Positions 4,821 to 28,361 of a stretch of DNA of 33,690 nt are shown one piece after another. The DNA lies in the NCBI GenBank assembly GCA_043785945.1, contig JAYVWQ010000078.1, positions 1 to 33,690 of the forward strand. The letters are read 5' to 3'. The position numbers and the translations under genes are program-made. Under the pieces are notes generated by a model. That model was not told where the DNA came from. It ran no database searches and was given only the letters and a program-made list of their open reading frames with translations. The stretch comes from Akkermansia sp. (GTDB lineage Bacteria; Verrucomicrobiota; Verrucomicrobiia; Limisphaerales; SIBH01). The first letter of the stretch is position 1; each line of letters starts with the position of its first letter.

Positions 4821-4849
4821 GGTTTCAGAGTTTCGTTCGGCGGATGAAA

Positions 4850-10600: not shown

Positions 10601-12004
10601 CGCCAGCGTGTCGGTCTCGACGCCGTGTTCACGCGCGAGTTCGCTGACGTTCGTCTGGCCGGCTTCCGCCCGGACGGCGGCAGCGAGATACTTCGCGGTG
10701 GCGGACAAGGTGCGTTCCCGACGGGCCGAAAGCTCGCGGCTCACCTCGCGCACGTCGCGGAGCAACAGCGTCGGCTGGCCCGGCGCGACGAGGCGCGGCT
10801 GTTCCCACACCACGAAGTCGCTCCTGTTTCCGTCGCCTGCATCCGACGCGCTGAGATAGAGCGTGAACTCCTTCGCCTCGGAGGACGCGGGGAGTTTCAG
10901 CCGCACTTCCTGCTTCGGCTGAACCGGCGTCAGCGGCTCCATCCACGCACCCGGCCCGTTCTTTTTTCCGATGTGGCCGACGGAGTTGAACTTCCACAGC
11001 GCGTGCTGCCATTGGGCGATGTCCTTCGCCAGCGCTGCCGCATCACCGGGCTTGGCCGAGCGCCAGCGGGCACGAATGGGGTCGAGAAGAAAGTTCGGCT
11101 GCGTGGAGTTCAGCGTCGCGCGCAAGGTCTGAAGATACTTCGCGCTCAATCCGTTCGTCGCCGGCGAGGACTTGCGCCCGGCCGCGCGTTCCTCCAGCAG
11201 CGCGGCGAGATACTTGTCGAGCGGCAGCACGCCGCCGTCCTTCGTGTCGAAGCGGATGCCCTGCAAGTTCACCGACGTGCCACCGCCCTTGTCGGTGAAC
11301 TCGCGATACGTCCCGCGAATCTCGGCCAGCAATTCCTCGGTCCAATCGCGCCGGGTGTTCTTCGGCGAGAAACGAATTCCATCCGGCAACAGCATCGCGT
11401 GGCTCGTGATGTCCTTCGCGGCGTCGAGGTACTTCGTGACCAGCGACGGCGACATCACGAGCGAGTTGCCGACGTTCATGAAGCCTTCGCCCGAGGCGGA
11501 ATCCACCGGGAACTCCTTGGCCGGATCGAGCGACGCCACGCCCGTCAAATCCCGCACGGTGTATTTGAACTCCGCGTTTGAGAGCCGCCGCAGCACGACC
11601 GGGCCGGGGTCGCCCGCGCGGGCCAGCGCGATTTCGTCGAGCACGGCATTCACCCAGGCCAGCAACTGCTCCCGTTGCGCGGCGGCAGGCTGCGGCTTTT
11701 CCGACGGCGGCATTTCGCCCAGCGAGACTTGCTCGATCACACCCTGCCAAATCTTCGGATGCTTCTTCACTTCATCGAGTGAGGAGAAGCGTTCGAGGTC
11801 GAGGTCGCCCTTGTGTTTCTCCGTCGAATGGCAAGTCAGGCAATACTCCTTCAAGACTGGGCGGATGGATTGATCAAAGAATTGTGGTGTGGTGGCGGCT
11901 TGGGCGGACGCGTCATGTTGGCCGGCAAACAGCACGAGGCTGGTCATCCATGCACACAATAACTGGGGGAGCGACAATCTCATTCTCCACAACTCGACGA
12001 TCAT
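7700..12004 (-). CDS. Giant PSCyt / DUF1592-DUF1595-DUF1587-DUF1588-DUF1585 family protein (planctomycete-type cytochrome-c-motif exoprotein)
   Basis: Signal peptide MRLSLPQLLCAWMTSLVLFAGQHDASAQA, so the start could alternatively be 11983. N-terminal CLTCHS heme-binding-type motif and C-terminal CYGCHRRIDAYGYSLEAFDAIGRLRE motif are present. Size and order are typical of this PVC family, which is normally paired with DUF1501. Confidence 0.85.
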   Translation of the reverse strand: MIVELWRMRLSLPQLLCAWMTSLVLFAGQHDASAQAATTPQFFDQSIRPVLKEYCLTCHSTEKHKGDLDLERFSSLDEVKKHPKIWQGVIEQVSLGEMPPSEKPQPAAAQREQLLAWVNAVLDEIALARAGDPGPVVLRRLSNAEFKYTVRDLTGVASLDPAKEFPVDSASGEGFMNVGNSLVMSPSLVTKYLDAAKDITSHAMLLPDGIRFSPKNTRRDWTEELLAEIRGTYREFTDKGGGTSVNLQGIRFDTKDGGVLPLDKYLAALLEERAAGRKSSPATNGLSAKYLQTLRATLNSTQPNFLLDPIRARWRSAKPGDAAALAKDIAQWQHALWKFNSVGHIGKKNGPGAWMEPLTPVQPKQEVRLKLPASSEAKEFTLYLSASDAGDGNRSDFVVWEQPRLVAPGQPTLLLRDVREVSRELSARRERTLSATAKYLAAAVRAEAGQTNVSELAREHGVETDTLAAWLDYLGISATGPAKIEGHFTDIYTNGSGFAFINGWGKSGTPNLAANSSDQPVRIPGNMKPHSVAVHPSPKLAAAVGWRSPVAGRVRVTATIQHAHPECGNGVTWSLELRHGSKRQRLASGVAQGAKEVKPAPIENLAVQPGDVVSLLIGPRDANHSCDLTAVDLTLTSLGDGGREWDLAKDVSPNILAGNPHADRFGNEGVWHFYTEPDKGAALGPVIPPGSLLAKWQTSASAEEKTKLADEAQTLLTSAAPAKRDSPDAVLHRQLTSLGGPLFQTGSSRRKEAPTRKDQSLVTSAATNEASLDPAQFTGANLHVQAPSVLEIRLPADLVAGYEFITIGSLDKPTGVEGSVQLQLLTNKPVASSGLLAIEAKTADGEGPWYSNNRTTSHDAPIVVNDGSAARRRIEAAFDEFRNIFPAALCYTKIVPVDEVVTLTLFYREDDHFKRLMLDDAQAARLDRLWDEMHYVAQDALTLVDVFEQLWQYATQDADPSVFEPMREPIKQRAAAFRQRLVDTQPAHLDAVLKFADGAYRRPLADSEKGELRGLYRKLRAEEIPHDQAIRLTLARTLVAPAFLYRAEKPGPGGKPGPVNDWELATRLSYFLWSSAPDAELRAVAASGQLRQPDVLAAQTRRMSQDARTRRLATEFACAWLHIYDFDELGEKSERHFPTFTALRGAMYEETIRFFTDLFQNDGSVLNILDADYTFLNADLAKHYGMEELFSSSRRKEALTRNPKPETRNIQSLVTSAATTNDDGWQRVDGVKRYSRGGILGQATTLAKQSGASRTSPILRGNWLCEVLLGEKLPRPPKDVPRLPEDEATETLTVRQLTEKHTTDPKCYGCHRRIDAYGYSLEAFDAIGRLRERDLGGRPIDTHAKIMDGAEFDGLDGLRKYLLTTRRDAFLKQFCRKLLGYSLGRGVLLSDGPLITEMRAQLKKHDYRISAAMETIVRSQQFREIRGKEMASEE
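8349..8433. repeat. Palindromic repeat element copy 1, embedded in frame in the giant CDS
   Basis: Arms GTAGCAGCCGAGGTGACGAGGCTCT (8349..8373) and AGAGCCTCCTTACGTCGGCTGCTAC (8409..8433) are 22/25 complementary. The loop holds a heptamer tandem repeat. It encodes SSSRRKEALTRNPKPETRNIQSLVTSAATT on the minus strand. Confidence 0.75.
8378..8405. repeat. Heptanucleotide tandem repeat (GTTTCGG)x3 + GTTTCGA inside a CDS
   Basis: Read directly at 8378-8384, 8385-8391, 8392-8398 and 8399-8405. The unit length is not a multiple of 3. Confidence 0.9.
9705..9768. repeat. Palindromic repeat element copy 2, embedded in frame in the giant CDS
   Basis: The 24-nt core GAGCCTCCTTACGTCGGCTGCTAC at 9745..9768 is identical to 8410..8433. 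The left arm GTGGCGGCCGAGGTCACGAGACTCT (9705..9729) is a diverged copy of 8349..8373. It encodes SSRRKEAPTRKDQSLVTSAAT in the same frame and orientation as copy 1. Confidence 0.75.
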
Positions 12005-12972
12005 GCCAGCGTCCCATTCATCTTCGTGTTCATGGGAACAATTGCAGCAGCGCGGCGCCCAAGAGTTTCAGGCCGCACGCACCGGGATGATTGATCGCGG
12101 TCAGCATGGGCGGGTGCCACGGAATGCCCGTTCGCCCGAACCTTCTCGCTGTGCGGCTCATCATCAAGCCTTAGCCCGTCTCACCCGCGGCGTGAAACTC
12201 GACTGACCACGTTCGATGTGTTCTCCACCCTGCGCATCTGGGACACCACGACCGAACCACGCTCTCCACCCACGGAACTCCGCCGGCCACCGGGGATTTT
12301 CCCGCACGCTGTTTTCTCGCGCCCCGGAACTCCGCGAAGGAGGCAGTGAAGAATTCCTGCCCGAAGATTTCCGGGCGCTGGACGGAGCCGTAGAAATGAA
12401 TAATCAAATTCCCCTTATCGACGAAGGTTCCCGTCCATGTGGGTCAGGCTGCCGGCAGGGGCGGAGAGATGAGCGGTTGAAAAACAGCAGCAGAGGCTCG
12501 GAATCAGCTTGGTTGGGCAGTGGTTAGCGGCAGAGACATAGGACTCAATGGAAACCAAACTCCATGAGAATGGAGGGAGTGGAGTGGTGCCGGCGGAGGG
12601 GGTCGAAGCCATGCGGGGTGTTTTTTCAACTTGCATCAATGTGCATCCGAGGCGCATTAACATTGCCTCCAATACACTTCGATTGTTTTTCATTAATTCA
12701 CGCTTTGGTGCATAGAAATGCACGAAACTACGCGTTTGGTGACACTACACTGACACAAATTATCAAGGACAGGACGAATCCCGGTCGCGATTAAAAATGC
12801 CGAGCGATGCGCGCGACTCGTCGAGCCGGTGTCATGGCTGACTCGGGGAGCAAAGTTGGCGACGCTGAAACTCGGACGACTGAAGGCCGAGGTCCAAACA
12901 TCTGGACCAACGGGCAGAATGGCGACGGACAAAAATCGAGGTTGAGCAGGCCGTCCAAGTCGCGAGGGAGGC

Positions 12973-12984
12973 GGGGGGGGGGGG
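12973..12984. repeat. Homopolymeric G12 tract in non-coding DNA
   Basis: Read directly (gcGGGGGGGGGGGGct). A shorter G8 tract lies in a similar sequence context at 30554..30561. Confidence 0.9.
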
Positions 12985-13029
12985 CTGCGTTTTCCGGGCT
13001 GGTGCGATGGACCCGATGGATCGGGCCGT

Positions 13030-13202
13030 CCGAAATTTTTAACAAAAGTGCGATCTGGCCACTACTTGTCGTCGGATTTTTAAGCCCAAAAAATTTCTCG
13101 CCGCAAAAAATGCTTCCCGGAAAATTTTTACGCAAAAGGGAATCGTTCTCCGGCACGTCGTTGATGTTCCGATGCGGAATTGAGGCCCGCGAAAATTTTT
13201 TA
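13030..13202 (+). promoter_or_regulatory. Cluster of A/T-rich GAAA(A)TTTTTA-type motifs upstream of the DUF72 gene; function unknown, possibly promoter or UP-like
   Basis: Motif copies lie at 13030..13048 (CCGAAATTTTTAACAAAAG), about 13074..13110, 13118..13156 (CGGAAAATTTTTACGCAAAAGGG-N9-CCGGCAC) and 13188..13202. The 13118..13156 unit recurs at 30607..30643. Confidence 0.3.
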
Positions 13203-13294
13203 TGAGCAATGTGAGCTTACTGCTCCACTTGCGGACGATCCTCGTTCGCGAACGGTGGCTTGCTGATCCTCGTCCCGTCTTTGTAATTTTGCGC

Positions 13295-14245
13295 ATGGGC
13301 TTCGAGCGTGAAAAATTACGCGCGCGCATGGCTGAACTGGCTGCGGCAGGCGTCCTCGTCGGGACGTCCTCCTGGAAATATGAAGGCTGGCTCGGGCAGC
13401 TCTACACTTCCGACCGCTACCAATACCGGGGCAAGCTCGCGGTGAGCCGGTTTGAAAAGCTGTGCCTCGCGGAATATGCCGAGGTCTTCAAGACCGTGTG
13501 TGTGGATGCGGCCTACTACAGTTTCCCGCGCCGCGAATATCTGCACGGCCTCAGCGACCAGGTGCCGGATGATTTTCAATTCGGATTCAAGGTCACTGAC
13601 ACCATCACGACCAAGAAATTTCCGAACCTTGCCCGCTTCGGCGCGAAGGCCGGACAGAAGAACGCGGACTTCCTCAATGCCGATTTGTTCGCCACCGCCT
13701 TCCTCAAGCCGTGCGAGGACATTCGCGGCAAGGTCGGGGTGCTCATGCTGGAGTTCTCTCGCTTCTGGCCCACGGATTACGAGCACGGGCGCGATTTCCT
13801 CACGGACCTCGATGCGTTCCTCGGCAAGCTGCCGCCGGGTTGGCCCTACGCCATTGAGATGCGGAACAAGAACTGGCTGGTGCCGGATTACTTCGCGTGC
13901 CTGGCCCGGCATGGCGTGACGCACGTTTTCAACTCCTGGGAGGCGATGCCAGCGGTGAGCGAACAGATGGCGCTGGCCGGCAGCGTGACCAATCCCGCTC
14001 TCGTGGCCGCGCGTTTCCTGCTCAAGCCCGGCCGCAAATACGAGGACGCGGTGAAAACCTTCCAGCCGTACGACCGCACCCAAGAAGTGAACGACGAAGC
14101 CCGCAAGGCCGGGAGAACATTGATTCGTGAGGGGCAGAGTGCCGCTAAGAAACGCAAGACGCTCATCTTCGTGAACAACCGGCTGGAGGGCAACGCGCTG
14201 AACACCATTGCTGCGATGGTGGCGGAAGGTCAGTTGGAGCGTTGA
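13295..14245 (+). CDS. DUF72 (YecE/UPF0759) family protein
   Basis: The GTSSWKYEGWLGQLY motif lies near the N-terminus and the family pattern runs throughout (..AEYAEVFKTVCVDAAYYSFP..FKV....T...). The start is uncertain, at ATG 13295 or 13328. The ORF-track start at 13202 adds an implausible leader. Confidence 0.85.
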   Translation: MGFEREKLRARMAELAAAGVLVGTSSWKYEGWLGQLYTSDRYQYRGKLAVSRFEKLCLAEYAEVFKTVCVDAAYYSFPRREYLHGLSDQVPDDFQFGFKVTDTITTKKFPNLARFGAKAGQKNADFLNADLFATAFLKPCEDIRGKVGVLMLEFSRFWPTDYEHGRDFLTDLDAFLGKLPPGWPYAIEMRNKNWLVPDYFACLARHGVTHVFNSWEAMPAVSEQMALAGSVTNPALVAARFLLKPGRKYEDAVKTFQPYDRTQEVNDEARKAGRTLIREGQSAAKKRKTLIFVNNRLEGNALNTIAAMVAEGQLER

Positions 14246-14263
14246 CAAGGCGTTTCCGGGAAA

Positions 14264-14283
14264 TACTGTTCAAGTGAACAGTA
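14264..14283. promoter_or_regulatory. LexA operator (SOS box) overlapping the lexA start codon
   Basis: TACTGTTCA-AG-TGAACAGTA has perfect 9-bp arms. It contains TGTTC(14267-14271)-N4-GAACA(14276-14280) and also fits CTGT-N8-ACAG. TTGACA at 14242..14247 is a -35 candidate and TACTGT at 14264..14269 is a -10-like hexamer inside the operator. The lexA ATG is at 14283. Confidence 0.8.
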
Positions 14284-14906
14284 TGAAGGAATTGACCAAA
14301 ATTCAGCAGCGCGTCTTTGATTTCGTGCGCTCCAGACTGGCCGCCGGACGTTCCGCCCCGACGCAGCGTGAGCTGGCGGCAAAATTCCACTGGTCCAGCC
14401 AGAACACGGCGCAATGCCATCTCCAAGCCATCATTCGCAAGGGCTGGCTCCTCGCGGACGAGGGCAAGGCGCGTTCGTTGCGACTGGCCGCCAACCTCGT
14501 GGCGGCACCGCATACGGTGGTGGAAATCCCGTTCCTCGGCACCATTCCCGCCGGTTTTCCCGCTGAACGCTCTCAGGTCGTGGGCAAGTGCGTGCCGGTC
14601 GCCATCGAATCCATCGGCTTCAAACCCAGCCGCCATGCTTTCGCGCTCCAGGTGACGGGCGACTCCATGATTGGGCGGCACATTTGCGACGGGGACATTG
14701 CCCTGCTCGAACACGGGCCGGAGCCGCGCTCCGGTCAGATTGTGGCCGCGCTCATCGACGGCGAAGTGACGTTGAAAACCTTCGTCCTCAAGAATGGCAA
14801 AACCTTCCTGCGGGCCGAGAATCCCAAATATCCCGACTTGCTCCCCTCCGAGGAGCTGGTCATTCAGGGGTTGCTCAAGGCCATCATTCGGCGGGCCAAA
14901 GAATGA
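14283..14906 (+). CDS. lexA: LexA repressor (S24 peptidase)
   Basis: Start at MKELTKIQQRVFDFV. Winged-HTH region PTQRELAAKF..SSQNTAQCHLQAIIRKGWL. Ala-Gly cleavage site in LGTIPAGFP. Catalytic Ser in VTGDSM and Lys in VTLKTF. Confidence 0.93.
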   Translation: MKELTKIQQRVFDFVRSRLAAGRSAPTQRELAAKFHWSSQNTAQCHLQAIIRKGWLLADEGKARSLRLAANLVAAPHTVVEIPFLGTIPAGFPAERSQVVGKCVPVAIESIGFKPSRHAFALQVTGDSMIGRHICDGDIALLEHGPEPRSGQIVAALIDGEVTLKTFVLKNGKTFLRAENPKYPDLLPSEELVIQGLLKAIIRRAKE

Positions 14907-14953
14907 GTGTCAGACCGTTCTTGTCCCACCCGGCATGACAGCTTCGCCCGCGC

Positions 14954-17900
14954 ATGGATTCCAAACCGCCCCGCAGCATCGTCCACCTCGATGCGGATGC
15001 TTTCTTCGCCGCCTGCGAGCAGGCGGCGGATGCGAAGCTGCGCGGCCAGCCCGTGGCGGTGGGCGGCACGGCGCGCGGCATTATCGCCTCGGCCTCCTAC
15101 GAGGCGCGCAAGTTTGGCGTGTTCACGCCCATGCCGACGGTGCGGGCGCGCAAGCTCTGCCCCAAGCTCATCGTGTTGTCCGGCGACTACGAACGTTACG
15201 AGTGGTTTTCCGACACGATGTTCGGCTACTGCCTGGACTTCACGCCCGACGTGGAACAGACCTCGATTGATGAAGGCTACTGCGACCTGACGGCCAACCG
15301 GACGAAGAGCGCGGTGGTGATTGCGCAAATCATCCGCAAGGCGATCACGCAACGGCTGAAAATCACGGTCAGTGAAGGGGTGGGTTCCAACAAGCTCATC
15401 AGCTCGGTCGCGTCGAAGTTCAACAAGCCGGCCGCGTTTTACGAAGTGCGGCCGGGCAGCGAGCGGGCCTTTCTCAGTCCCCTGCCGGTCAAGTGGCTGC
15501 CCGGCGTGGGGCCGAAAACCAGTCTGCGCCTGAACGCGGCGGGACTGGGGCGCATTGAGCAAATCGCTGCGACTCCCTTGGACATGCTGGAGCTGGTGCT
15601 GGGCAGTCAGGCCGCGACCATCCGACAGTTCGCCCACGGCCTTGATGATCGGTTGCTCGTGCCCAAACAGGCGCGGCAGAAGACGTTCAGCAAGCAGGAG
15701 ACGTTTGGCGCAGACATCACCGATGAGGAATACGCGGAAGCCGTCTTGCGCCGCATGGCCGATGAACTCTTTGCCGACGTGCGCGCCGAGGGGCGCACCG
15801 TCCGCACGCTCAACGTGCGGGTGCGCTACAACGACATGGGCGAGGATCAGTTGAGCGAGAGCCTGGCGGAACCGACCGATCTGGAAACCGACATTTACGC
15901 GCGGCTGCACACCATGCTGCGCAAGGCTTGGAAGCGGCGCGTGAGCCTGCGCCTCGTCTCGCTCAAACTCTCCAACCTTTACGACGGCCGCTTTCGCAGT
16001 GAACTGCCGTTGGAAGTGTCGGCGCAACGACAGGAGGCGCGGGGCAAACTCGCCGGGGTGATAGATGAACTGCGCCGGGTGCATGGTCACTCCGCCCTTT
16101 TGCGCGGCCATGACTTCCGGCTGCGGACCCCGCCCCGCGCGGCATTGGAAGAAGTGCCGAAGACTGCGCCGCGCCGCCTCTCCATCATCATTCGTCCTGC
16201 CAAGGTCACGACCTTCGCCCCGCTGCGGATGCACAGTCATTATTCGTTTCTCGACTCGGTGCTTTCCCCCACGGCGCTGGTGGAACTGGCGCGGCAACAT
16301 CACTTGCCCGCCGTGGCCCTGACCGACACCGGCAACCTGCATGGCGCGGTGGAGTTCGTGCAGGCCGCGCAGAAGGCCGGGATCAAACCAATCGTCGGTG
16401 TGGAACTGCCCGTGGAGGGCGGCAGCCTGCTGCTCTACGTCGAGTCGGCGCGCGGCTATCACCAACTCTGCCGTCTGCTCTCGCGCCATGCGGAGCGCAG
16501 CGCCCACGATGGCGATGAAAGCTCGGTCGCGAACCAACAGCGCCGCCCCTTTCGCCGCTCGGAACTGGAAGGCGGCACCGATGGACTGCTCGCAGCGGGC
16601 GATGACGCGGGCTGGGCGGAACTGTTTCCGCAACGCTTCTACCGCCTCGTCACCTCGCGCCAGACGCCCAATGACTTTCCCGCCGTGGCGGCTCCGGCGG
16701 TGCGTTACGCCCTGCCCGGCGACCGGCAGAAATACGACATCGTGCAAAGCATCCGCACGCTGACCCTGCTCCGTGAGACGCATCCCGAGAAGCACGCGGA
16801 CGGGCGCTTTCATTTTCGTCCCCCGGCGGAACTGCTGGGCGCGTGCGGTTCGCATCCCGAATGGCTGCACCACACTTTGGAAATCGCAGAGCGTTGCCAC
16901 TTCGATTTCCCCTTCGGCAAGCCGCAGTTCCCCGACTTCCATCCGCCCGATGGTTCCACGGCGCGCGCGTTCCTGCGCCGCCTCGTCATGGACGGGCTGC
17001 GTTCGCGCTACCGCGAGCGGGCCGCGCAGTTTGCCCCGCAGGTGGAGGAGGAGCTGAACATCATCGCTGCCGTGGGCTACGAATCCTACTTCCTCATGGT
17101 CTGGAGCATCTTGCAGGACTGCCGCGCGCGAGGCATTGAGTGGATCACGCGCGGCTCGGCGGCGGATTCGCTCGTGTGCTACTGCCTGCGCATCTCCGGC
17201 GTGTGCCCCGTCCGCTTCGATCTCTACTTCAAGCGATTCCTCAACCCGGAACGGATGGCCCTGCACAAGCTCCCGGACATCGACATTGATTTCCCGCACG
17301 ACCGGAAGGATGACGTGGTGGATCTCATCTTCGCCCGCTACGGCGCGGAGACATGCGCCGTGGTCGGGGGCTTCTCGACGTTCCAGGCGCGCAGTGCCTT
17401 CGCCGAGTGTGCGAAAGTTTTAGGTGTGGGCGAGCGCGACGTGCGCAAGTTCACCGAGCGTTTTCCCTGGGGCTTCGGCGGCGGCTGGGTGCCGGATGAA
17501 ACCGCGCCCAAGGCCGGTGCGGCGCTGGTGGAACTGTTGCAGGCCAGTCCCGAAACGCGCGACCTGCCAGTGGGTGAAGAGCCTTATCGCACCGCGCTGG
17601 AAATGGCCACGGTGCTGGATGGCCGTCCGCGTTATCCGAAAATGCACCCCTGCGGCGTGGTCCTGTCCTGCCAGCCCATGCACGAACTCACCCCGACCTT
17701 CATCTCAAACAAGCGCCGGGCCACCACCCACTACGACATGGATGGCGTCGAGGAAATCGGCCTGGTGAAGATGGACATTCTCGCGCAAGGCGGACTGGCC
17801 GCGATGCGCGACGCGAAGGATGCGCTGGCCCGGCGCGGCCTCATCGTCGATTTGGAAACCTTGGAGCCTTGGGACGATCCCGAAGTGTGGGAGATGATCG

Positions 17901-19267
17901 CCAGCGGCGGCGCGCGCGCCGTGCATCACATCGAGTCGCCCGCCATGATCAACCTCTGCCGCATGACCAACGTGCGGGAGATCGATGGCATCATTGCCAT
18001 CGTCTCCGTCATTCGTCCCGGCGCAGCGAATGAGTCCAAGAAACTTTCCTTCACCCGGCGTTATCAGGGCATGGAACCGGTTCACTATCCGCACCCCTCG
18101 CTGGAGCCGTGCTTGCGCAGCACCTTCGGACTGGTGGTCTATGAGGAACACATCCTGCAAATCTGCGAAGCCTTCGCCGGTCTGCCCGCCGGCCGCGCGG
18201 ATGTCCTGCGCCGGGCGCTGGTGAAACAGAAGCGCGCCGTCGTCGCCGAGATTGCCTTGGAGTTTGATGCGAGCGCCCGAGCGCGCGGACACGACGAGGC
18301 GAAGATTGCCGAAGTGTGGGAACTGGTCACGGGCTTCAACGGCTACGCTTTCAACAAGGCGCACTCCACGGCCTACGGGGTCGAGGCTTATCAGGCCGCG
18401 TGGCTGAAACGCTATCACCCGGCCGAGTTCATGGCCGGTGTGCTGACCAACGGCAAAGGCTTTTATCATCCGCTCGTCTATGTGCTCGAATGTCATCGGC
18501 TCGGCCTGAAGTTCCTGCCGGCGTCGGTCAACGAGCCGGGGCCGTCCTTCGTGCCGCATGGCCCGGCCATCCGCGTGCCGTTGACCCGCGTGAAGGGATT
18601 GACCACGCGCACCACGGATCGCCTCGTCGCCGCGCGGTTGGAAGGCGCGTTCACTTCGCTACGCGATTTTTTTCACCGCGTTGCGCCCACAGGCGAAGAA
18701 CTGGAGGCCATGATCCGTGCCGGAGCTTTCGATGAGTTCGGAGACGCACGCACGCGGCAGTTCTGGCAGGCGCAGCATCTGTTGAAGACTTTCGCGGGCA
18801 CCGCCGAGCCGGGCCAGGCATGGCTGCTGCCCCCACCGGGCTTGGAACAACTGCCCGGCCTTCCGCTCAATGAGCCGACGCGGCTGGAACGCCTGCAATC
18901 AGAAACGGAATTGTTCGGCTTCGCCGTCAGCGGCCATCCGCTCGAACTGTTCCCCGATGTGGCGTGGGACACATATTGCCCGGTCAATCGTCTCGGTCAG
19001 TTCATTGGTGAGACGGTCACAACTTGCGGCCTGGTGGTGGAACAACGCACGCATCATCAAGCCACGGGCGAGCCAATGAAATTCATGTCCATCGCCGACC
19101 GCACGGGCATCGTGGAAACAGAAATGTTCGCCGACAGCTACCGCAGCCACGCGCTCGCCACTGTCCGCTATCCGGTGCTGGAAGTGACGGCGACCGTCGA
19201 GCCATTCGAGAATGGACGCGGCTTTTCGTTGCGGATCATCAGGGCCGGAGAACCTAGGAAGAAGTAA
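14954..19267 (+). CDS. dnaE2: Single-ORF fusion: DinB-like Y-family DNA polymerase (aa 1 to about 350) + linker + DnaE2 error-prone Pol III alpha-like polymerase (aa about 421-1437)
   Basis: Y-family part: IVHLDADAFFAACEQ, SIDEGYCDLT (acidic catalytic residues present), NKLISSVASKFNKP and LPGVGPKT, plus a little-finger region. DnaE2 part: PHP domain FAPLRMHSHYSFLDS..VALTDTGNLHGAVEF, palm LPDIDIDFPHDRKDDV, KMDILAQGGL, and C-terminal OB fold (TVTTCGLVVEQR..MKFMSIADRTG). No stop or frame change lies between the parts. Confidence 0.85.
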   Translation: MDSKPPRSIVHLDADAFFAACEQAADAKLRGQPVAVGGTARGIIASASYEARKFGVFTPMPTVRARKLCPKLIVLSGDYERYEWFSDTMFGYCLDFTPDVEQTSIDEGYCDLTANRTKSAVVIAQIIRKAITQRLKITVSEGVGSNKLISSVASKFNKPAAFYEVRPGSERAFLSPLPVKWLPGVGPKTSLRLNAAGLGRIEQIAATPLDMLELVLGSQAATIRQFAHGLDDRLLVPKQARQKTFSKQETFGADITDEEYAEAVLRRMADELFADVRAEGRTVRTLNVRVRYNDMGEDQLSESLAEPTDLETDIYARLHTMLRKAWKRRVSLRLVSLKLSNLYDGRFRSELPLEVSAQRQEARGKLAGVIDELRRVHGHSALLRGHDFRLRTPPRAALEEVPKTAPRRLSIIIRPAKVTTFAPLRMHSHYSFLDSVLSPTALVELARQHHLPAVALTDTGNLHGAVEFVQAAQKAGIKPIVGVELPVEGGSLLLYVESARGYHQLCRLLSRHAERSAHDGDESSVANQQRRPFRRSELEGGTDGLLAAGDDAGWAELFPQRFYRLVTSRQTPNDFPAVAAPAVRYALPGDRQKYDIVQSIRTLTLLRETHPEKHADGRFHFRPPAELLGACGSHPEWLHHTLEIAERCHFDFPFGKPQFPDFHPPDGSTARAFLRRLVMDGLRSRYRERAAQFAPQVEEELNIIAAVGYESYFLMVWSILQDCRARGIEWITRGSAADSLVCYCLRISGVCPVRFDLYFKRFLNPERMALHKLPDIDIDFPHDRKDDVVDLIFARYGAETCAVVGGFSTFQARSAFAECAKVLGVGERDVRKFTERFPWGFGGGWVPDETAPKAGAALVELLQASPETRDLPVGEEPYRTALEMATVLDGRPRYPKMHPCGVVLSCQPMHELTPTFISNKRRATTHYDMDGVEEIGLVKMDILAQGGLAAMRDAKDALARRGLIVDLETLEPWDDPEVWEMIASGGARAVHHIESPAMINLCRMTNVREIDGIIAIVSVIRPGAANESKKLSFTRRYQGMEPVHYPHPSLEPCLRSTFGLVVYEEHILQICEAFAGLPAGRADVLRRALVKQKRAVVAEIALEFDASARARGHDEAKIAEVWELVTGFNGYAFNKAHSTAYGVEAYQAAWLKRYHPAEFMAGVLTNGKGFYHPLVYVLECHRLGLKFLPASVNEPGPSFVPHGPAIRVPLTRVKGLTTRTTDRLVAARLEGAFTSLRDFFHRVAPTGEELEAMIRAGAFDEFGDARTRQFWQAQHLLKTFAGTAEPGQAWLLPPPGLEQLPGLPLNEPTRLERLQSETELFGFAVSGHPLELFPDVAWDTYCPVNRLGQFIGETVTTCGLVVEQRTHHQATGEPMKFMSIADRTGIVETEMFADSYRSHALATVRYPVLEVTATVEPFENGRGFSLRIIRAGEPRKK

Positions 19268-19268
19268 C

Positions 19269-19616
19269 ATGGCTGTCGGTCAACTCTGGCTCTTTCCGCC
19301 GCCCCGACCTCTCGTCGAACGACTGGGTGAGGAGTTCTTTCGCACCCTGCCCACTGCGCCCGGCGTCTATCTCATGTGCGGCGAGCGCGAAGGCGTTCTT
19401 TACGTGGGCAAGGCGCGCAATCTGCGCAAGCGCCTCTCCAGCTACCGGGTCGCGAATCCCGAACGCCTCCCGCGTCGCATCATCCGCCTGCTGTATCAAG
19501 TTCGCCGCATCGAATTGGATGTGTGTGCCACGGAAGCCGCCGCACGGCACCGGGAGGAGGAATTGATCGGTGTCCTGCAACCGCGCTTCAATCGGGCTGG
19601 CGTGGTGTGGCCGTGA
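19269..19616 (+). CDS. Stand-alone GIY-YIG nuclease-domain protein (UvrC N-terminal / Cho-like), 115 aa
   Basis: The ATG lies 1 nt after the dnaE2 TAA (19265-19267). PGVYLMCGEREGVLYVGKARNLRKRLSSY closely matches the UvrC GIY-YIG signature. The downstream EEELIGVLQPRFNRAG supplies the conserved Glu and Asn. Confidence 0.8.
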   Translation: MAVGQLWLFPPPRPLVERLGEEFFRTLPTAPGVYLMCGEREGVLYVGKARNLRKRLSSYRVANPERLPRRIIRLLYQVRRIELDVCATEAAARHREEELIGVLQPRFNRAGVVWP

Positions 19617-19801
19617 TGCGACTTCACAGTGCCACCGCGCTGGCCTTCTTGCGTTCTAGAATCCCGCGATCAGATTCTGGAACGAGTGTCGTGTTGTCAC
19701 GGATGCAGCACAATACTTCTACGGAAATTCCCGAAAGGCTTTGCTTGCTAGCCGCCGTTCCGATAGTGGTTACCACCACAAATCCTTTTCTACTAAGCAA
19801 C

Positions 19802-21208
19802 ATGGAAATTCGCTTCTCATGCCCTGGCTGTTCACAACATCTTTCGGTTTCGCCGCGAGCAGCAGGACAAGCGGTTGAGTGTCCATCGTGCGGCCAGACT
19901 ATGACGGTTCCTTCTGCTTCGCCCGAACCGCCCTCGCTGGTGCCGACTCCCGAATCAGCTTCTGATCACACCGAAACTTTCGTGGTGCCAGCTCATGCTC
20001 CACCTCCCCCGCGCACGGATCAAGGCGATCTGACTTGTCCGGTCTGCTGGTTGAAATTTGACGCTGGAGACGTGATGCACGTCGCGGTGCATGACTCCCT
20101 GCGCGGCGATCCGGTGCTGGGGGAGGACGCACCACAACGCTTCCACGCCACGCGCTTCAACGACGCCAGCCAGGCGCTTGATGCGATGGGGCTGCCGTGC
20201 CTCGACGTGGCTTGTCCGCATTGTCGGCGCAAGTTTCCTCCCGGCTTTCTGGATGTGCCGTATCACATCATCTCATTGGTCGGTGATCAGAGCGCGGGCA
20301 AGTCGTATTACCTCAGCGTGATGGCGAAGGTATTCCCGGCGAGTCTGTACCGGCATTTCGGCGTCACCTGCCAGGACGCGGACCCGACCGGCAACGCACC
20401 GCTCAACGACATGAAAAGCGTGCTCTTTAGCGCGCAATCGCCGGAACAGGCACGTCTTGCCAAGACGCAACTCGAAGGCGCGATGTACGAACGCCTGCCG
20501 CGTCACGGTCGCATGGTCGCGCTGCCCAAACCTTTTGTTTATTCCTTGCGCGGCAATCACGGCGGCGACTCGGCGTGTTCTCTGATTTTTTACGACAACG
20601 CTGGCGAGCATTTTCAACCGGGCCGCGACGTAACGGAACAACCCGGTGCGCTGCATGTGGCGAGCGCGGCAGGTATTCTGTTTCTGTTTGATCCGTTCAA
20701 CAGCCCGGAGTTTCGCAAGTGCATCGGACGGACGGATGATCCGCAGATGGAAAAGCCCGCCATCGATCAACAAGACGTGATTCTTTCGGAAATGCGGTCG
20801 CGCATTCAAAAGATTCGGAACTTGCGCAGTGGGGAAAAAATCCCAACACCGCTCGCCGTGCTCGTGGGCAAGTGCGATGCGTGGCTGCACTTGCTCGAAG
20901 GCGGACCGCTGGCGCATCCGCTCGTGAACGGTGCGCTCTCACTCGACATCATTCGCACCAATTCGCGGCGCATCCGGGAATTTCTCGTTTCCGCCTGCCC
21001 AACGGTCGTGGCGAACGCCGAGGCGTTGAGCGAACATGTTGTCTTTTTCGCCGTCAGTGCGTTCGGTCACACGCCTGTAAAAATTGCGGGCAACGCCTAC
21101 GTGCCCGATCCCGCGCAGTTGGCTCCGGTGCAAGTGGAAGTCCCGCCGCTCTGGTTGTTGTCGCAAATTTCGCCGGGCCTCGTGCGGGCCACGGAAACCG
21201 TCGCCTGA
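19802..21208 (+). CDS. Double zinc-ribbon + Ras-like (TRAFAC) GTPase, 468 aa
   Basis: I prefer the start MEIRFSCPGC at 19802. The ORF-track extension back to 19376 overlaps the GIY-YIG gene and is Arg/Pro-rich junk. ZnR1 is CPGC-x16-CPSC. ZnR2 is CPVC...CPHC. G1 is GDQSAGKS (20282..20305), G3 is DNAGE (20594..20608), G4-like is VGKCD (20866..20877) and G5-like is VSAFG. Confidence 0.85.
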   Translation: MEIRFSCPGCSQHLSVSPRAAGQAVECPSCGQTMTVPSASPEPPSLVPTPESASDHTETFVVPAHAPPPPRTDQGDLTCPVCWLKFDAGDVMHVAVHDSLRGDPVLGEDAPQRFHATRFNDASQALDAMGLPCLDVACPHCRRKFPPGFLDVPYHIISLVGDQSAGKSYYLSVMAKVFPASLYRHFGVTCQDADPTGNAPLNDMKSVLFSAQSPEQARLAKTQLEGAMYERLPRHGRMVALPKPFVYSLRGNHGGDSACSLIFYDNAGEHFQPGRDVTEQPGALHVASAAGILFLFDPFNSPEFRKCIGRTDDPQMEKPAIDQQDVILSEMRSRIQKIRNLRSGEKIPTPLAVLVGKCDAWLHLLEGGPLAHPLVNGALSLDIIRTNSRRIREFLVSACPTVVANAEALSEHVVFFAVSAFGHTPVKIAGNAYVPDPAQLAPVQVEVPPLWLLSQISPGLVRATETVA

Positions 21209-21209
21209 C

Positions 21210-23699
21210 ATGCCGCAGCAACTCATCTACACCAGCGCACCGCGCGGACTGGCGGCAGGCCGGGCCGGCTTTTGCACGGTGGCGATGAGTGTGGGATTGC
21301 GTGAGGCGCTGGCGCTGAAACTGGAGCAGATCAGTTACTTCGATCATGGCGCGATGGGCGCGGGTGAGCAGGTGATTCGCGCCTTTCGTCTCATAGACCT
21401 TCGGGGCACCCGTTATTTTGTCCTCTCACGCGTGCAGGATTGCGGACTCGATTTCACGCAACGAACTAATTTCATCGCGCACCATCTGATCTTCACGCCG
21501 GAAGAAGTTTCTGACGTTGCCAGGCCACCGGAAATCTTCCGGCAATGGAACGGCTGGCTGACTCGCTGGGATGGTGAGCCAAGCGTTTTATCGGATAATG
21601 ACTGGGGCAACCTCTATGCAATTCCCAGCCGCCAGCCGCCGGCCCGCGCCTGGGCGCGACTCGCTGGCGATGCGATGAACGCCTTTGCTCTCCTTGAAAC
21701 GTCCGGTCTCCTGTTGAACGTCGAGGGCGTGGCGGATGACGCCGTGCTCGATTTGTTTGCCGAGTCCTTGGCGCTGCTGGAAGCGCGCGAGGCCCGCGAC
21801 TTCCGTGCCGCCGCCTGGCAGTTCACTTTCACCACGGCTTTACAGAATCAGGATGCCCCGGCGGAGTTTCGCTGGCGCTGCGTGCGCGGCGATGGCGGAG
21901 GGTTGACCAACCTAGGCTCGGCGCGCGTTCAGCCGCTGCTGCAACTTCGTCCGGCCCGCGTCAGCGTGGGCGAAGCGTCGTTCGCACGCTCCGGCTATCA
22001 GCCGCCGAAGATTCTCGCGGAGCCGAAAGACGCTTACGCAAGTGAAGGCGAAAGCGTGACATTGCGCGTGGACGTGAGCGGCCTGCCAACGCCGAATCGT
22101 TTCCAGTGGTTCAGTCTCTCCCGCACTGGCGCGGAAGAACCCCTCGCCGACGCGAGCAGCGCCGAGTTGAGCATCCGTCCGGCGCGCGGGATGAATCGTT
22201 ACTGCGTCAAGATTTCCAATCTGCGTGGTGACACCGTGATGAGCCGCGTGGCGCAAGTCTCCGTGGACGCGGCCGTGAGAGTGCCCGGTCTTCAAGCTCC
22301 TCGCACCACGTCCGCACCGGCGGGCGTTCACCAAACTGCAAGGGCCGCAAAAGAGTGGACGGCTGATCCGTTGGAAGCGGAGACATTTAGGCTCCAAGTG
22401 GAAGAACGCGAACGGAAGCGAAGCCGAAATCGGATGCTTTTAGTAACTGTCGCGGTTTTTGCTCTGGTTGGCATCGTGGTTGGATTCTTGGTGGTGAAAC
22501 GTCCTGACCTTTTTTTGAATCGGCACCGTGCCGATGCTTCGCAATTGGAGGGGAGCGACGAAACTAACAAGACCAATGAGAGAACACCACCTGTCACATC
22601 TCCTGCAAAACCCATACGCGACATTGGGGCCAACGAGCGCGTGGCCGAGTCGCAAGATGCCTTGAAGGAGAAGGTGTTTCTTGCGCTGTTGACAGCGAAG
22701 AGCGACATCCCGATTCGTGGAGCACTTGCCGCGAAGCTGCGGCGCTTTTTCGTCGGAACGACGAACGGATCGCCAATGTCCGTGGCAAGCAGCGATAAGC
22801 CAGATCGGGCGCTACTGCCGAAGGAGAAGGAACAAGAAATCAAAGCAGATCGGAAGATTGACATCAAAATCAGCACCAATTCGCTGCATCTGACGACGAA
22901 CAATACTGACGTGGTTTTGTCAGCTACCGTCTTAAAGAGTCCAGTCCTCCTTCGATTTGTCGATAAGTCTTCACCAATCGGGGAGTCCTTTCAGTTACTT
23001 GTGTGGCCGAATAATCCCGCCGTCCCGGCGGAATTGACGTTCGTTAATGCCCACCTCCAACTCATGGATGGGTGGCCGCAAATCCTTGCCGCGACTGAAG
23101 GTGAACATTTTTTCTTCAACGGGAATCACCCCGACATGGACACGGTTAAAAGCAACAAAATCGAACGCAGCTACGCAATCGAATACAAGCCCGCTTTTGA
23201 GACGAGACGGCGAGATGCAGCCAAAATGTTGACGACATACGAGTCTTGGCGCGACGCAACTGAGAAAATGGTTCGGCTTCGCGACAAGGTCGGCCTTGGG
23301 AAAACCAGCGCAGATTCATTGAATGGCATCTGGGACGAAGTTCAGGCTGTCTGCATCGAAGCTGTCGGAGCGACGCGGCGCGATTTCAATTTCAGCAATC
23401 CTCAAAACGACAATCGAAAAAGCGACGCGCAACGAATTGTGCAGGAATGGCGCTCTTTACGAAAACCAGACTTGGAATTGGCTGAGGCAGCTTTGAGTGG
23501 CCTCACCATTGATGCACTCGAACAAATCGTCGGCAACGGACAGCAATCCATGCGAACGCTTGATGGAGCGCGGCAGACTCTGAAAGAAAGAATCGACAGT
23601 GCGAAAGCGCAACAATCATTCTCCGCAGCCAAGATAACTTGCCAAATCCATTACGGGAAACCCGACGGGCAAGTGCTTGTGCAATTCAAAGTCAAATGA
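21210..23699 (+). CDS. Membrane-anchored protein: GTPase-associated-protein (GAP1-N2)-like N-terminal domain + Ig (I-set-like) domain + TM helix + about 390-aa C-terminal domain of unknown fold
   Basis: The ATG lies 1 nt after the preceding TGA. The N-terminus MPQQLIYTSAPRGLAAGRAGFCTVAMS resembles the QLHYTS..G..GFQ..A.S signature I recall for GAP1-type proteins. The Ig-like segment is PPKILAEPKDAYASEGESVTLRVDVSGLPTPNRFQWF...YCVKISNLRGDTVMSRVAQVSV (about 22002..22270). The TM helix is MLLVTVAVFALVGIVVGFLVV (about 22433..22495). The C-terminal half is visibly more A/T-rich than its surroundings. Confidence 0.8.
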   Translation: MPQQLIYTSAPRGLAAGRAGFCTVAMSVGLREALALKLEQISYFDHGAMGAGEQVIRAFRLIDLRGTRYFVLSRVQDCGLDFTQRTNFIAHHLIFTPEEVSDVARPPEIFRQWNGWLTRWDGEPSVLSDNDWGNLYAIPSRQPPARAWARLAGDAMNAFALLETSGLLLNVEGVADDAVLDLFAESLALLEAREARDFRAAAWQFTFTTALQNQDAPAEFRWRCVRGDGGGLTNLGSARVQPLLQLRPARVSVGEASFARSGYQPPKILAEPKDAYASEGESVTLRVDVSGLPTPNRFQWFSLSRTGAEEPLADASSAELSIRPARGMNRYCVKISNLRGDTVMSRVAQVSVDAAVRVPGLQAPRTTSAPAGVHQTARAAKEWTADPLEAETFRLQVEERERKRSRNRMLLVTVAVFALVGIVVGFLVVKRPDLFLNRHRADASQLEGSDETNKTNERTPPVTSPAKPIRDIGANERVAESQDALKEKVFLALLTAKSDIPIRGALAAKLRRFFVGTTNGSPMSVASSDKPDRALLPKEKEQEIKADRKIDIKISTNSLHLTTNNTDVVLSATVLKSPVLLRFVDKSSPIGESFQLLVWPNNPAVPAELTFVNAHLQLMDGWPQILAATEGEHFFFNGNHPDMDTVKSNKIERSYAIEYKPAFETRRRDAAKMLTTYESWRDATEKMVRLRDKVGLGKTSADSLNGIWDEVQAVCIEAVGATRRDFNFSNPQNDNRKSDAQRIVQEWRSLRKPDLELAEAALSGLTIDALEQIVGNGQQSMRTLDGARQTLKERIDSAKAQQSFSAAKITCQIHYGKPDGQVLVQFKVK

Positions 23700-26677: not shown

Positions 26678-27474
26678 ATCCAAACCCGCCACCGCCCTTT
26701 TCATCGGAGCCGAGTTACGACGGCCCGCTGCGATTGAGTTGGCGTGGTCGCGAGGAGGGGCCGTTCCTGTGGGCGGAGATTGAGCGTCGGCTGACTGCGA
26801 ATGAGATCGGCCTGTTCCATGAAGTGCAAGTGGACGGCGCATGGATGACGCTGCGCGCCTTCCTTGAATTGCGTGAAGCCGCACAACTAGAGGCAAAGGC
26901 GCGACGGGAAGAAGCCGAGCGTGTTGCCAATGTCCACGCGGCGCGTGCCGCCGAGGACCGCGCCGCGCGGCATCAGTCCGAAGTGCTCGCGGAGGAAAAG
27001 CGCAAGAACGATTTGATGGCGGCGGCGCTTGGCCTGCCACAAGGGAAGAAAAGTCCGATGTCACTCCCACGCTTGCTGCGGAACATCGCGCTTGTCCTGG
27101 TGCTGGTGTGTGGCGTATTTGCCGCGTATCAGGCGTATCGCATTCCCGAACTCACCGCGCTCTCGGCCCGCGCCCGCGAAGTCGCCGCGAAATTCAACTA
27201 CGTCGATTCGCCGACGGCGAGCCGCCTGGGCATCAATCTTTTCGCGTCGCTCTTTGGTGATGCGCGTGATGTGCGCGACGCCATTGCGGAAGTTTCGCAG
27301 ACCATCGGCGACAAAGAGAAGCTTCAGCAACGCTATCAATGGATGGCGACGCAATTGAGCGCGGAGTTGGAGACGGCGGGCATCGCGCGCAACTGGGCGC
27401 TGCTCCTGGGTTGCTGCTTCGCCATCGCTGCGATTTGTTTTCACTTCGGAGCACGCAACGACCAAACCGTATGA
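26674..27474 (+). CDS. GYF_2 (DUF4339)-like domain protein with coiled coil and two TM helices
   Basis: ATGA overlap at 26674..26677. The GYF-like region is LRLSWRGREEGPFLWAEIERRLTANEIGLFHEVQVDGAWMTLRAFLE. A charged coil follows. TM helices are LLRNIALVLVLVCGVFAAYQAY and NWALLLGCCFAIAAICFHFG. Confidence 0.8.
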   Translation: MNPNPPPPFSSEPSYDGPLRLSWRGREEGPFLWAEIERRLTANEIGLFHEVQVDGAWMTLRAFLELREAAQLEAKARREEAERVANVHAARAAEDRAARHQSEVLAEEKRKNDLMAAALGLPQGKKSPMSLPRLLRNIALVLVLVCGVFAAYQAYRIPELTALSARAREVAAKFNYVDSPTASRLGINLFASLFGDARDVRDAIAEVSQTIGDKEKLQQRYQWMATQLSAELETAGIARNWALLLGCCFAIAAICFHFGARNDQTV

Positions 27475-28358: not shown

Positions 28359-28361
28359 CTC

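Follow-up and report, generated by a model that had tools for sequence, protein, structure and literature searches.

How is a bacterial gene to be understood in which two DNA polymerases of different families are written as one protein? The question is raised by a 33,690-nucleotide stretch of DNA from Akkermansia sp. (GCA_043785945.1, contig JAYVWQ010000078.1, positions 1-33,690; hereafter the window), where a Y-family polymerase and a DnaE-type (C-family) polymerase share an uninterrupted ATG-to-stop open reading frame (ORF) of 1437 residues at 14954..19267 on the forward (+) strand. An earlier sequence-only reading took this gene, here called polY::dnaE2-like, for a fusion of an active DNA polymerase IV (Pol IV) with a full DnaE2, placed under LexA control in a cassette devoid of imuA and imuB. 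The best explanation of our data is probably that LexA-controlled Y-family and DnaE2-type operon genes were fused into a 1437-residue translesion enzyme, and that the fusion has been conserved vertically. We likewise think it likely, judging from the sequence, that the product would carry out translesion synthesis with the help of RecA and without proofreading, a covalent link taking the place of contacts between subunits.

The Fusion Is Genuine and Conserved

Pfam domain searches of the 1437-residue protein bear out the presence of both polymerases in one frame: IMS (residues 12-155) and IMS_C (243-342) are followed by PHP (424-517), DNA_pol3_alpha (673-944), the fingers domain (948-1110), and HHH_6 (1184-1267). 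When 5.8 billion protein clusters were searched, 1654 matched at E <= 1e-20, and the best 120 of these, which were examined for architecture, are all fused; with identities of 71-87%, they derive from assemblies of NCBI, JGI, ENA, and Logan. Among the GTDB species-representative genomes, 513 related stretches turned up. In the best 80 of these 513 (L006-L085), with each locus read over about 16 kb, a single stop-free ORF runs across both modules in 80/80 cases. The proteins of these 80 loci, together with the window protein, make up the 81 sequences to which all column counts refer. When clusters at 50% identity were searched with residues 1-1200 as the query, the full-length fused family came down to P0121, P0122, P0124, and the window's own cluster; since so few clusters remain at this level, the family is compact, lineage-restricted, and species-rich.

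Nearly all of the best 80 loci are labeled Verrucomicrobiota, Verrucomicrobia subdivision 3, Limisphaerales, or Pedosphaera. A few bear odd submitter labels, for example Klebsiella or Bifidobacterium metagenome-assembled genomes (MAGs), and these are taken to be mislabeled bins. The fused clade is known almost solely from MAGs, and the lineage that encodes the fusion is one of soil and freshwater Verrucomicrobiota.

An assembly error, a frameshift, or a gene-calling artifact could in principle have merged two adjacent genes, one dinB-like and one dnaE2-like. Split dinB-dnaE pairs do occur in relatives, and the member of one cluster shows as two ORFs (P0284 and P0283). This last case was considered as a split variant and rejected, as its break is a frameshift inside PHP rather than at the module boundary. 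Against an artifact stand the same continuous frame in 80 independent genomes, derived from many studies and assemblers, the uniform fusion of the best 120 protein clusters, and the conserved coding sequence that crosses the junction, and we give this explanation practically no credit. The sequence-only reading had left open whether orthologs are fused or split and whether the junction hides a stop or a frameshift; in all 80 related genomes the gene is fused and neither was seen between the halves. A conserved internal start codon was also absent from the PHP boundary, where position 426 is Met in 3/81 sequences.

Pairwise identity averages 0.74 in the Y-family module and 0.77 in the polymerase core, against 0.17 in the tether that separates them; the two enzymatic parts are thus under similar constraint. 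It is nearly certain that the lexA operon holds a genuine, conserved fusion and that purifying selection acts on both of its active sites. In the databases the fused proteins are named "DNA polymerase IV", "DNA polymerase III subunit alpha", or "PolC", varying by record, and all three of these current names are misleading.

The Fusion Gene Follows lexA and a Conserved Palindrome

The gene directly upstream of the fusion is lexA (14283..14906, + strand), which encodes a 207-residue protein with the PAG motif of the Ala-Gly cleavage site, the Ser of GDSM, and the Lys of TLKTF. For equivalog calls we used NCBIfam models with their own curated cut-offs; the protein scores 142.4 bits against TIGR00498 lexA (cut-off 110.95) and also matches Pfam LexA_DNA_bind and Peptidase_S24. 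The window's lexA ends 47 nucleotides before the fusion gene. Among the related loci with enough upstream sequence, 66/69 have lexA directly upstream on the same strand, with a gap that lies mostly between -8 and +57 nucleotides and includes overlapping stop and start codons. Because the gaps are short and the codons often overlap, we regard lexA and the fusion gene as an operon.

A perfect 20-bp palindrome, TACTGTTCAAGTGAACAGTA, is found at 14264..14283, where it overlaps the lexA ATG by 1 nucleotide. It holds both CTGT-N8-ACAG, of which it is the only copy in the window, and TGTTC-N4-GAACA. The former is the E. coli-type LexA site, and the latter is reportedly the LexA consensus of Verrucomicrobia. 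In the related loci (L006-L085) the palindrome lies 0-2 nucleotides from the lexA start. The strict CTGT-N8-ACAG pattern is present in 18 of these loci only, and a mismatch-tolerant scan shows the palindrome with differing arms, which vary symmetrically: CTGT/ACAG, CTAT/ATAG, CCAT/ATGG, CTGC/GCAG, GTGT/ACAC, CCGT/ACGG, and CTAC/GTAG. Since the arms change symmetrically at a fixed position, the palindrome can be read as a conserved operator, and the pattern suggests that LexA specificity and operator may be co-evolving within one order. LexA would be expected to bind this predicted operator, and DNA damage would then induce the operon. The LexA control proposed earlier is therefore in keeping with a lexA operon preceded by a conserved palindromic candidate operator.

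The second exact TGTTC-N4-GAACA of the window, TGTTCATGGGAACA, lies at 12027-12040, 23 nucleotides upstream of a 1434-residue PSD/PSCyt gene on the minus strand. Because two exact copies are observed in the window against 0.03 expected, it may be another LexA site. The PSD/PSCyt gene carries DUF1592/1588/1587/1585/1595 and planctomycete cytochrome c domains. On its other side, TGTTCATGGGAACA edges a stretch of about 1.15 kb (12040-13200) with lower GC, no convincing ORF, and a G13 run near 12968-12980. No Rfam family was matched in 11900-15000.

The Y-Family Module Resembles DinB

The Pol IV-like module (14975..15988, + strand; residues 8-345) is matched by Pfam IMS and IMS_C with E-values of 3.1e-41 and 2.7e-19, respectively, and carries HLDADAFFA at residues 11-19 and SIDEGY at residues 104-109. 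In the phmmer alignment with E. coli Pol IV, its predicted catalytic residues D13 and D15 correspond to D8 and D10, D106 and E107 correspond to D103 and E104, and F18 corresponds to the steric gate F13. The module also aligns end to end with the solved Pol IV structures 7yll and 4ir1. It reaches the Pol IV equivalog model NF002677 (264.7 bits, cut-off 256), while the remaining Pol IV models stay under their own cut-offs and the UmuC model matches much more weakly than Pol IV. None of the four acidic residues is missing from any family member whose sequence extends over those columns; F (71 sequences) or Y (6 sequences) stands at the steric gate, and the fused family shows no variation in the SxSYEAR and SK..KP motifs.

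The alignment of Y-family proteins took in E. coli DinB and UmuC as well as the ImuB proteins of Ralstonia (L092) and Acetobacter (L093), which both come from canonical imuA-imuB-dnaE2 cassettes. A neighbor-joining tree joins the module to DinB and to the Y-family genes of the split relatives described below, not to ImuB, and a BLAST comparison with ImuB yields no better than E = 0.73. In this alignment the ImuB proteins of Ralstonia and Acetobacter have lost the catalytic acidic residues, all of which the module retains. Moreover, no ImuB-C beta-barrel was found after the RecA-N-terminus-like motif (see below), which is followed by about 28 variable residues and then by PHP. By these comparisons the module is DinB-like, not ImuB-like, and it is apparently catalytically active. 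The sequence-only reading was correct in noting that the Y-family half keeps its acidic residues, and the motifs it quoted (HLDADAFFA, SIDEGY, and DIDIDF) are in place; the grouping with ImuB that it named as the opposite outcome, with acids not conserved in relatives, was not seen. Its description of the module as an active Pol IV rather than an ImuB holds for the DinB-like character, on the evidence of NF002677, the conserved acids, and BLAST, and its word "active" goes one step beyond the residue conservation from which it was drawn.

Conserved Motifs and a Variable Tether Join the Modules

Between the little finger and PHP lie about 75 residues, described in the sequence-only reading as a linker of about 70 residues. 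A region of this kind exists, but it is not a plain linker: across the 81 sequences it holds conserved motifs and then a variable tether of only about 28 residues.

The first conserved element occupies the position of the Y-family beta-clamp motif (16001..16015, + strand; residues 350-354) and reads E-L-P-L-E instead of QLxLF. The fused-family pattern is [ED]-L-[PA]-L-[ED], with L351 invariant and L353 present in 76/81 sequences. Of the three positions that matter most in the beta-clamp motif, Q and F are two (PMC3919608), and both are replaced by acidic residues in the fused family, from which a canonical QxxLF-like motif after the little finger is absent. The split relatives have QLDLF (L003), QAQLF (L005), and QMDLF (L094) at this position. 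The linker had been suggested as a place to look for a clamp-binding motif; what it contains is the position of one, with the degenerate ELPLE.

The second element is likely a RecA-N-terminus-like (RecA-NT-like) motif (16037..16126, + strand; residues 362-391), with the family pattern A..RLA.V.D.LR...G..VILRGHD[FL]RLR. Its columns D371, L373, R374, R384, H386, and L390 are invariant, and G378 is invariant or nearly so. An hhalign comparison placed EARGKLAGVIDELRRVHGHSALLR in register with RecA residues 6-29 (P = 0.0046 over 24 columns, with hand-entered RecA sequences). Since Pfam DUF4113, the family that matches the RecA-NT motif, had no match in the linker at hmmscan E <= 10, it is this hhalign comparison that carries the assignment. 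A RecA-NT-like motif is found in most Y-family C-terminal tails and has been proposed as a RecA- or ImuA-binding element (Timinskas and Venclovas, PMC6511836). Because the linker carries such a motif, RecA itself can be put forward as the candidate for the missing partner.

The tether proper is rich in Ala, Pro, and Arg (16127..16213, + strand; residues 392-420). Between RGHD (residue 387) and H427, where PHP starts, the family has 35-78 residues, the tether included. An AlphaFold model of residues 1-1200, based on an alignment of 60 sequences at least 71% identical, has a mean per-residue confidence (pLDDT) of 68.4 and a predicted template-modeling score (pTM) of 0.55; residues 357-377 are helical in it, 385-391 form a short helix, and 392-416 are coil with pLDDT < 50. 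Three clusters show apparent low-complexity, Arg/Pro/Ser-rich insertions of 100 to >250 residues. Those of P0009 and P0018 (>100 residues) lie in the tether, and P0045 has them elsewhere, at several places in the DnaE module.

A tether that is variable and predicted to be disordered might also be a processing site, in which case the protein would be a polyprotein cut after translation, for example in the SOS response, to free a Pol IV-like and a DnaE2-like protein. Regulated self-cleavage is used by SOS systems, as in LexA and UmuD. However, the tether holds no conserved cleavage motif, the fusion protein contains no protease domain by Pfam, and there is no other sign of processing, so that we consider cleavage quite improbable.

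The C-Terminal Module Is a Non-Canonical DnaE

The C-terminal module begins with a PHP domain (16214..17023, + strand), recognized by Pfam and by alignment to Taq Pol III alpha, in which the metal-binding site is degenerate: T459 replaces the His of TDHGN, the H427 column is His in 47 sequences and Arg in 30, and H429 varies. The C-family core of palm, thumb, and fingers follows (17024..18493, + strand; Pfam DNA_pol3_alpha and fingers). DIDIDF lies at residues 775-780, and D775, D777, and D941 are present in 81/81 sequences. We take the aspartates of DIDIDF and KMDIL to be the catalytic aspartates of DnaE, which they match by motif position. Next come the (HhH)2 domain, or domain for beta binding (18503..18754, + strand; Pfam HHH_6, residues 1184-1267), the internal clamp-motif position (18815..18829, + strand), and an OB-fold region (18881..19264, + strand), for which Pfam tRNA_anti-codon OB matches were found in relatives. 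Little follows the OB fold, and when the protein is aligned with the alpha subunits of Taq, M. tuberculosis, and E. coli, about 100 residues at their C-termini are left uncovered. Because it ends so early, the module lacks the DnaE1-type, tau-binding C-terminal domain.

At the internal clamp-motif position the module reads Q-A-W-L-L (Q1288-L1292), which aligns with QFDLF in the DnaE1 of M. tuberculosis and with QADMF in E. coli. Across the family the pattern is Q-G-W-L-[LI]-P-P-P, with Q in 65/81, W in 61/81, and L in 65/81 sequences, and the motif is deleted in 12/81. The same position is PLPLF or xxxLL in imuAB-linked DnaE2, in agreement with the published motifs (PMC3919608), and xxSLF or xxxLF in the split relatives.

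The sequence-only reading regarded this half as a full DnaE2, and here it has to be corrected. Against NF004225 ("error-prone DNA polymerase") the module scores 521.7 bits, under the cut-off of 939, while a Rhizobium DnaE2 scores 1388 bits; plasmid-borne, imuAB-linked DnaE2 proteins are only about 27% identical to it. It does share with canonical DnaE2 the PHP-Pol-HhH-OB order, the missing C-terminal domain, and the disrupted PHP metal site. By sequence it looks like an error-prone, non-replicative DnaE that is not a canonical DnaE2.

One might ask instead whether it is the replicative DnaE1 of the cell with an acquired DinB domain. Its score against the DnaE1 equivalog NF004226 (647 bits) is higher than that against NF004225, and Q at the first clamp-motif position is DnaE1-like. 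The 647 bits are nevertheless far under the DnaE1 cut-off of 1002, the tau-binding domain is absent, the PHP site is degenerate and variable, and the gene is located in a lexA operon. In addition, the relatives of the module are DnaEs of about 1000 residues beside Y-family genes, and the module stands apart from DnaE1 in the tree. A replicative identity is accordingly very hard to maintain, and slightly less credible even than cleavage of the tether.

This neighbor-joining tree of DnaE modules is crude, has no support values, and was built without the published DnaE2B reference sequences (see below) among its tips. It shows three clusters, namely DnaE1 with E. coli, the imuAB-linked DnaE2, and DnaEs of approximately 1000-1100 residues. 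The last contains the monophyletic fused clade, unfused relatives, and the DnaE of a Desulfosarcina plasmid, which is encoded in a lexA-DUF72-PolY-DnaE operon. The tested members of this cluster are all below the NF004225 and NF004226 cut-offs, and most of its characterized DnaEs of about 1000 residues adjoin Y-family genes. Three longer DnaE matches (P0143, P0287, and P0290) were considered as carriers of Y-family remnants; none is present, and they are unfused DnaEs.

Split Relatives and the Origin of the Fusion

Among unfused DnaEs, those nearest to the C-terminal module are mostly encoded beside a separate Y-family gene. The 998-residue DnaE of P0141 (L003) is 47% identical to the C-terminal module by phmmer and 42% by BLASTP. 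Its polY partner, 402 residues long and 130 nucleotides upstream of dnaE, is 49% identical to the N-terminal module, carries the same RecA-like motif, and looks active from its residues. In P0136 (L005), polY is followed by a MarR gene on the opposite strand and then by dnaE, and in P0351 (L094, a Verrucomicrobiota MAG) by a 360-residue gene and then by dnaE. P0138 (L004) is an exception, without an adjacent Y-family gene. Named relatives of P0141 belong to Bryobacteraceae and other Acidobacteriota, Verrucomicrobiota, and Phycisphaerae.

Since neither half of the fusion is clearly closer than the other to its L003 counterpart, it appears that a polY and a dnaE gene lying side by side in one operon were fused. 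The simplest history, as far as these sequences tell, is that this happened in an ancestor of Verrucomicrobiota subdivision 3. One Verrucomicrobiota genome may carry both a fused (P0399, L096) and a split (P0351, L094) system. At 6260-6646 of L003, just upstream of the split polY, there is a 128-residue ORF that by eye looks like a bare S24/UmuD-type C-terminal beta domain (pattern GDLLVVEP...GDFVLAL..GE..IFR...VIQGVVVALIRRF); it has no Pfam match.

The catalytic D-E dyad is intact in the Y-family protein of L003 and lost in those of L005 (1072-2274), L094 (4671-5843), and L086 (3851-4981), the last of which also lacks the N-terminal Asp. The L005 and L094 proteins keep their Q..LF clamp motifs and the RecA-like motif. 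Active-looking and inactive-looking partners thus seem to alternate among close relatives.

This alternation bears on the main rival to a two-enzyme protein, in which one of the two active sites would go unused in vivo. The Y-family module would then be a covalent, ImuB-like adaptor for RecA, the clamp, and DnaE2 positioning, or the DnaE2-like module would be a scaffold. The Y-family member of a canonical mutasome has a structural role only (PMC6511836, PMC12926913), and because the partners of the closely related DnaEs in L005 and L094 have lost the D-E dyad, Y-family catalysis would be dispensable in sister systems. In the fused clade itself, though, the four Y-family acids, SxSYEAR, SK..KP, and the three DnaE aspartates are invariant, and the steric gate is always F or Y. 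Such invariance is not expected of an unused active site, for which reason we hold a purely structural module to be unlikely.

Relation to Known Translesion Systems

The absence of imuA and imuB noted in the sequence-only reading stands for the 33.7-kb window: Pfam found no ImuA, ImuB, or RecA domain on its other large ORFs, and a tblastn search of the window with two ImuA, two ImuB, and E. coli RecA gave a best E-value of 0.13. The canonical ImuA-ImuB-DnaE2 system, with which the locus had been compared, is nevertheless the wrong class, as a dead Y-family site, an ImuB-C domain, and an ImuA partner in the window were each looked for and none was found. That system (M. tuberculosis, P. aeruginosa, and Caulobacter) is likewise an SOS cassette that combines a Y-family-fold protein with a proofreading-deficient DnaE paralogue, and its Y-family member also carries a motif for binding RecA-like proteins and links the partners. 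ImuB, however, is dead and binds the PHP of DnaE2 through its ImuB-C beta-barrel, whereas the fusion has intact residues, no ImuB-C, and a covalent link.

The appropriate reference is the class of DnaE2B-PolY-RecA modules, described as lacking ImuA and ImuB (PMC6511836; PMC12926913), so that their absence here is expected and not anomalous. DnaE2B denotes the DnaE2s of genomes without imuA/imuB, which are linked to an active or inactive PolY bearing a RecA-NT motif (PMC12926913), and RecA has been proposed to take ImuA's place in this class. The pairing of PolY2 with DnaE2 in Bacteroidetes (Cellulophaga algicola) was called unusual because two apparently active polymerases are combined (PMC6511836), and SOS-regulated dinB-dnaE operons have been described (PMC8565304). 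The cluster of 1000-1100-residue DnaEs that holds the fused clade fits the DnaE2B group of PMC12926913, as far as its sequences can say. Like the DnaE2B-PolY-RecA modules, the fusion locus has no ImuA, ImuB, or ImuB-C (for the fusion, in the window), a frequent LexA/SOS link, and the gene order polY, then dnaE. Probably, though less firmly, the RecA-N-terminus-like motif of their Y-family C-terminal tail has its counterpart in the fusion as well. The modules differ in that their proteins are separate and predicted to form a complex, whereas the fusion is one tethered chain in 80/80 genomes, and in that the fused Y-family clamp motif is without Q and F. The fused clade (Verrucomicrobiota subdivision 3) apparently lies outside the complete-genome survey of PMC12926913, and the accessible part of its supplementary files lists no Limisphaera or Pedosphaera genomes.

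Three further systems can be compared. Closest are the split polY and dnaE pairs of Verrucomicrobiota, Acidobacteriota, and Desulfobacterota (L003, L005, L094, and L086), at 42-49% identity. They share the gene order, the RecA-like motif, and sometimes lexA and DUF72 neighbors with the fusion; they differ in being two genes, in their canonical Q..LF Y-family clamp motif, and in the loss of catalytic residues in L005, L094, and L086. The E. coli Pol V Mut (UmuD'2C-RecA-ATP) is likewise built on a LexA-regulated Y-family polymerase, and the C-terminal tail of this polymerase carries a RecA-N-terminus-like motif by which a RecA monomer is believed to be taken up (PMC6511836). In the fusion there is no UmuD-like subunit, and a C-family polymerase replaces the UmuD'-binding tail of UmuC. 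Finally, the eukaryotic pairing of a Y-family inserter with Pol zeta as the extender, on a Rev1 scaffold, also brings inserter and extender to one primer terminus. This is an analogy only: the extender is an unrelated B-family enzyme, the assembly is non-covalent, and homology is limited to the Y-family fold.

A single-chain Y-family-DnaE2 protein is mentioned neither in PMC6511836, PMC12926913, and PMC8565304 nor in the results of full-text literature searches for such a fusion. Within this literature the covalent fusion appears to be new, while the two-gene version has already been described and is itself uncharacterized.

A Proposed Mechanism and Its Significance

A mechanism for the fused translesion enzyme can be proposed from these features. 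DNA damage would activate RecA; LexA, with its Ala-Gly site and Ser/Lys dyad, would cleave itself and leave the operator, and the loss of LexA would derepress both lexA and the fusion gene. The Pol IV-like N-terminal module would insert nucleotides opposite lesions, and the DnaE2-like C-terminal module, which would have no functional PHP proofreader, would extend the primer, held at the same primer end by a flexible tether of at least about 28 residues. The RecA-N-terminus-like motif before the tether would bind a RecA protomer, so that RecA would fill the place of ImuA in the canonical mutasome. Contact with the beta clamp would more likely be made through the Q-x-W-L-L of the DnaE module than through the degenerate E-L-P-L-E of the Y-family module. 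Both this contact and the division of labor between inserter and extender are plausible from sequence; we infer them, together with catalysis at either site, RecA binding, and clamp binding as such, from motifs and their conservation.

The fusion may even form a complete single-chain inserter-extender mutasome, a more ambitious proposal that we advance tentatively. Both sites would share one primer end with intramolecular handover, a RecA docked between the modules would act as the switch, and the tether would stand in for the ImuB-C/PHP and clamp-motif contacts by which split systems are held together. Such replacement would account for the decay of the Y-family clamp motif in the fused clade only.

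Several points weigh against the proposed translesion mechanism. Conserved catalytic residues do not prove catalysis. The support for the RecA-like motif is modest, coming from a short alignment to hand-entered RecA sequences and with DUF4113 unmatched. The use of the clamp is uncertain because the Y-family motif has neither Q nor F and the DnaE motif ends in L and is deleted in some members. The AlphaFold model, for its part, is of low confidence and silent on contacts between the modules.

A gene fusion of this kind provides strong evidence from nature that the two proteins work as a single physical unit, and for the DnaE2B-PolY-RecA class this partnership has so far been predicted from gene neighborhood and AlphaFold models. 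Multi-subunit mutasomes are hard to reconstitute, and the fusion offers a bacterial mutasome as a single polypeptide, with a fixed 1:1 ratio, for biochemistry and cryo-electron microscopy. Moreover, the contrast between fused proteins, in which the clamp motif is lost, and split ones, in which it is kept, can show which contacts are replaced by a covalent link. The fusion of operon partners is common in evolution and the two-gene version is known, which tempers these considerations; even so, a covalent Y-family and C-family polymerase, each with an apparently intact active site, is notable and experimentally useful.

Neighboring Genes

Directly upstream of lexA lies a DUF72 gene (13202..14245, + strand; Pfam DUF72, E = 3.7e-30). 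The order DUF72-lexA-fusion also occurs in L001, L002, and at least 21/80 related loci, and on the Desulfosarcina ovata plasmid (L086) the order is lexA-DUF72-PolY-DnaE, with the PolY inactive by its residues. DUF72 is not mentioned in PMC12926913. Its recurrence as a companion of such cassettes makes it a possible accessory factor.

Two anti-phage defense genes adjoin each other on the minus strand further upstream. The gene at 3507-4853 encodes PDC-S02, a DUF1016/YhcG PD-(D/E)xK nuclease (E = 9e-147), and the gene at 4850-6571 encodes PD-Lambda-1, with DUF4041 and T5orf172/GIY-YIG-like domains (E = 4e-106).

The gene that follows the fusion varies between related loci. In the window, a gene cluster at 19376-30358 (+ strand) lies downstream and is probably a GTPase-centered conflict system. 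It includes a GAP1-N2 GTPase-associated protein at 21084-23699, a 610-residue protein with faint Double-GTPase-2 and zinc-ribbon matches, a 1012-residue protein without matches, and, at 27339-28358, a MotA/ExbB-like protein with weak ZorA matches.

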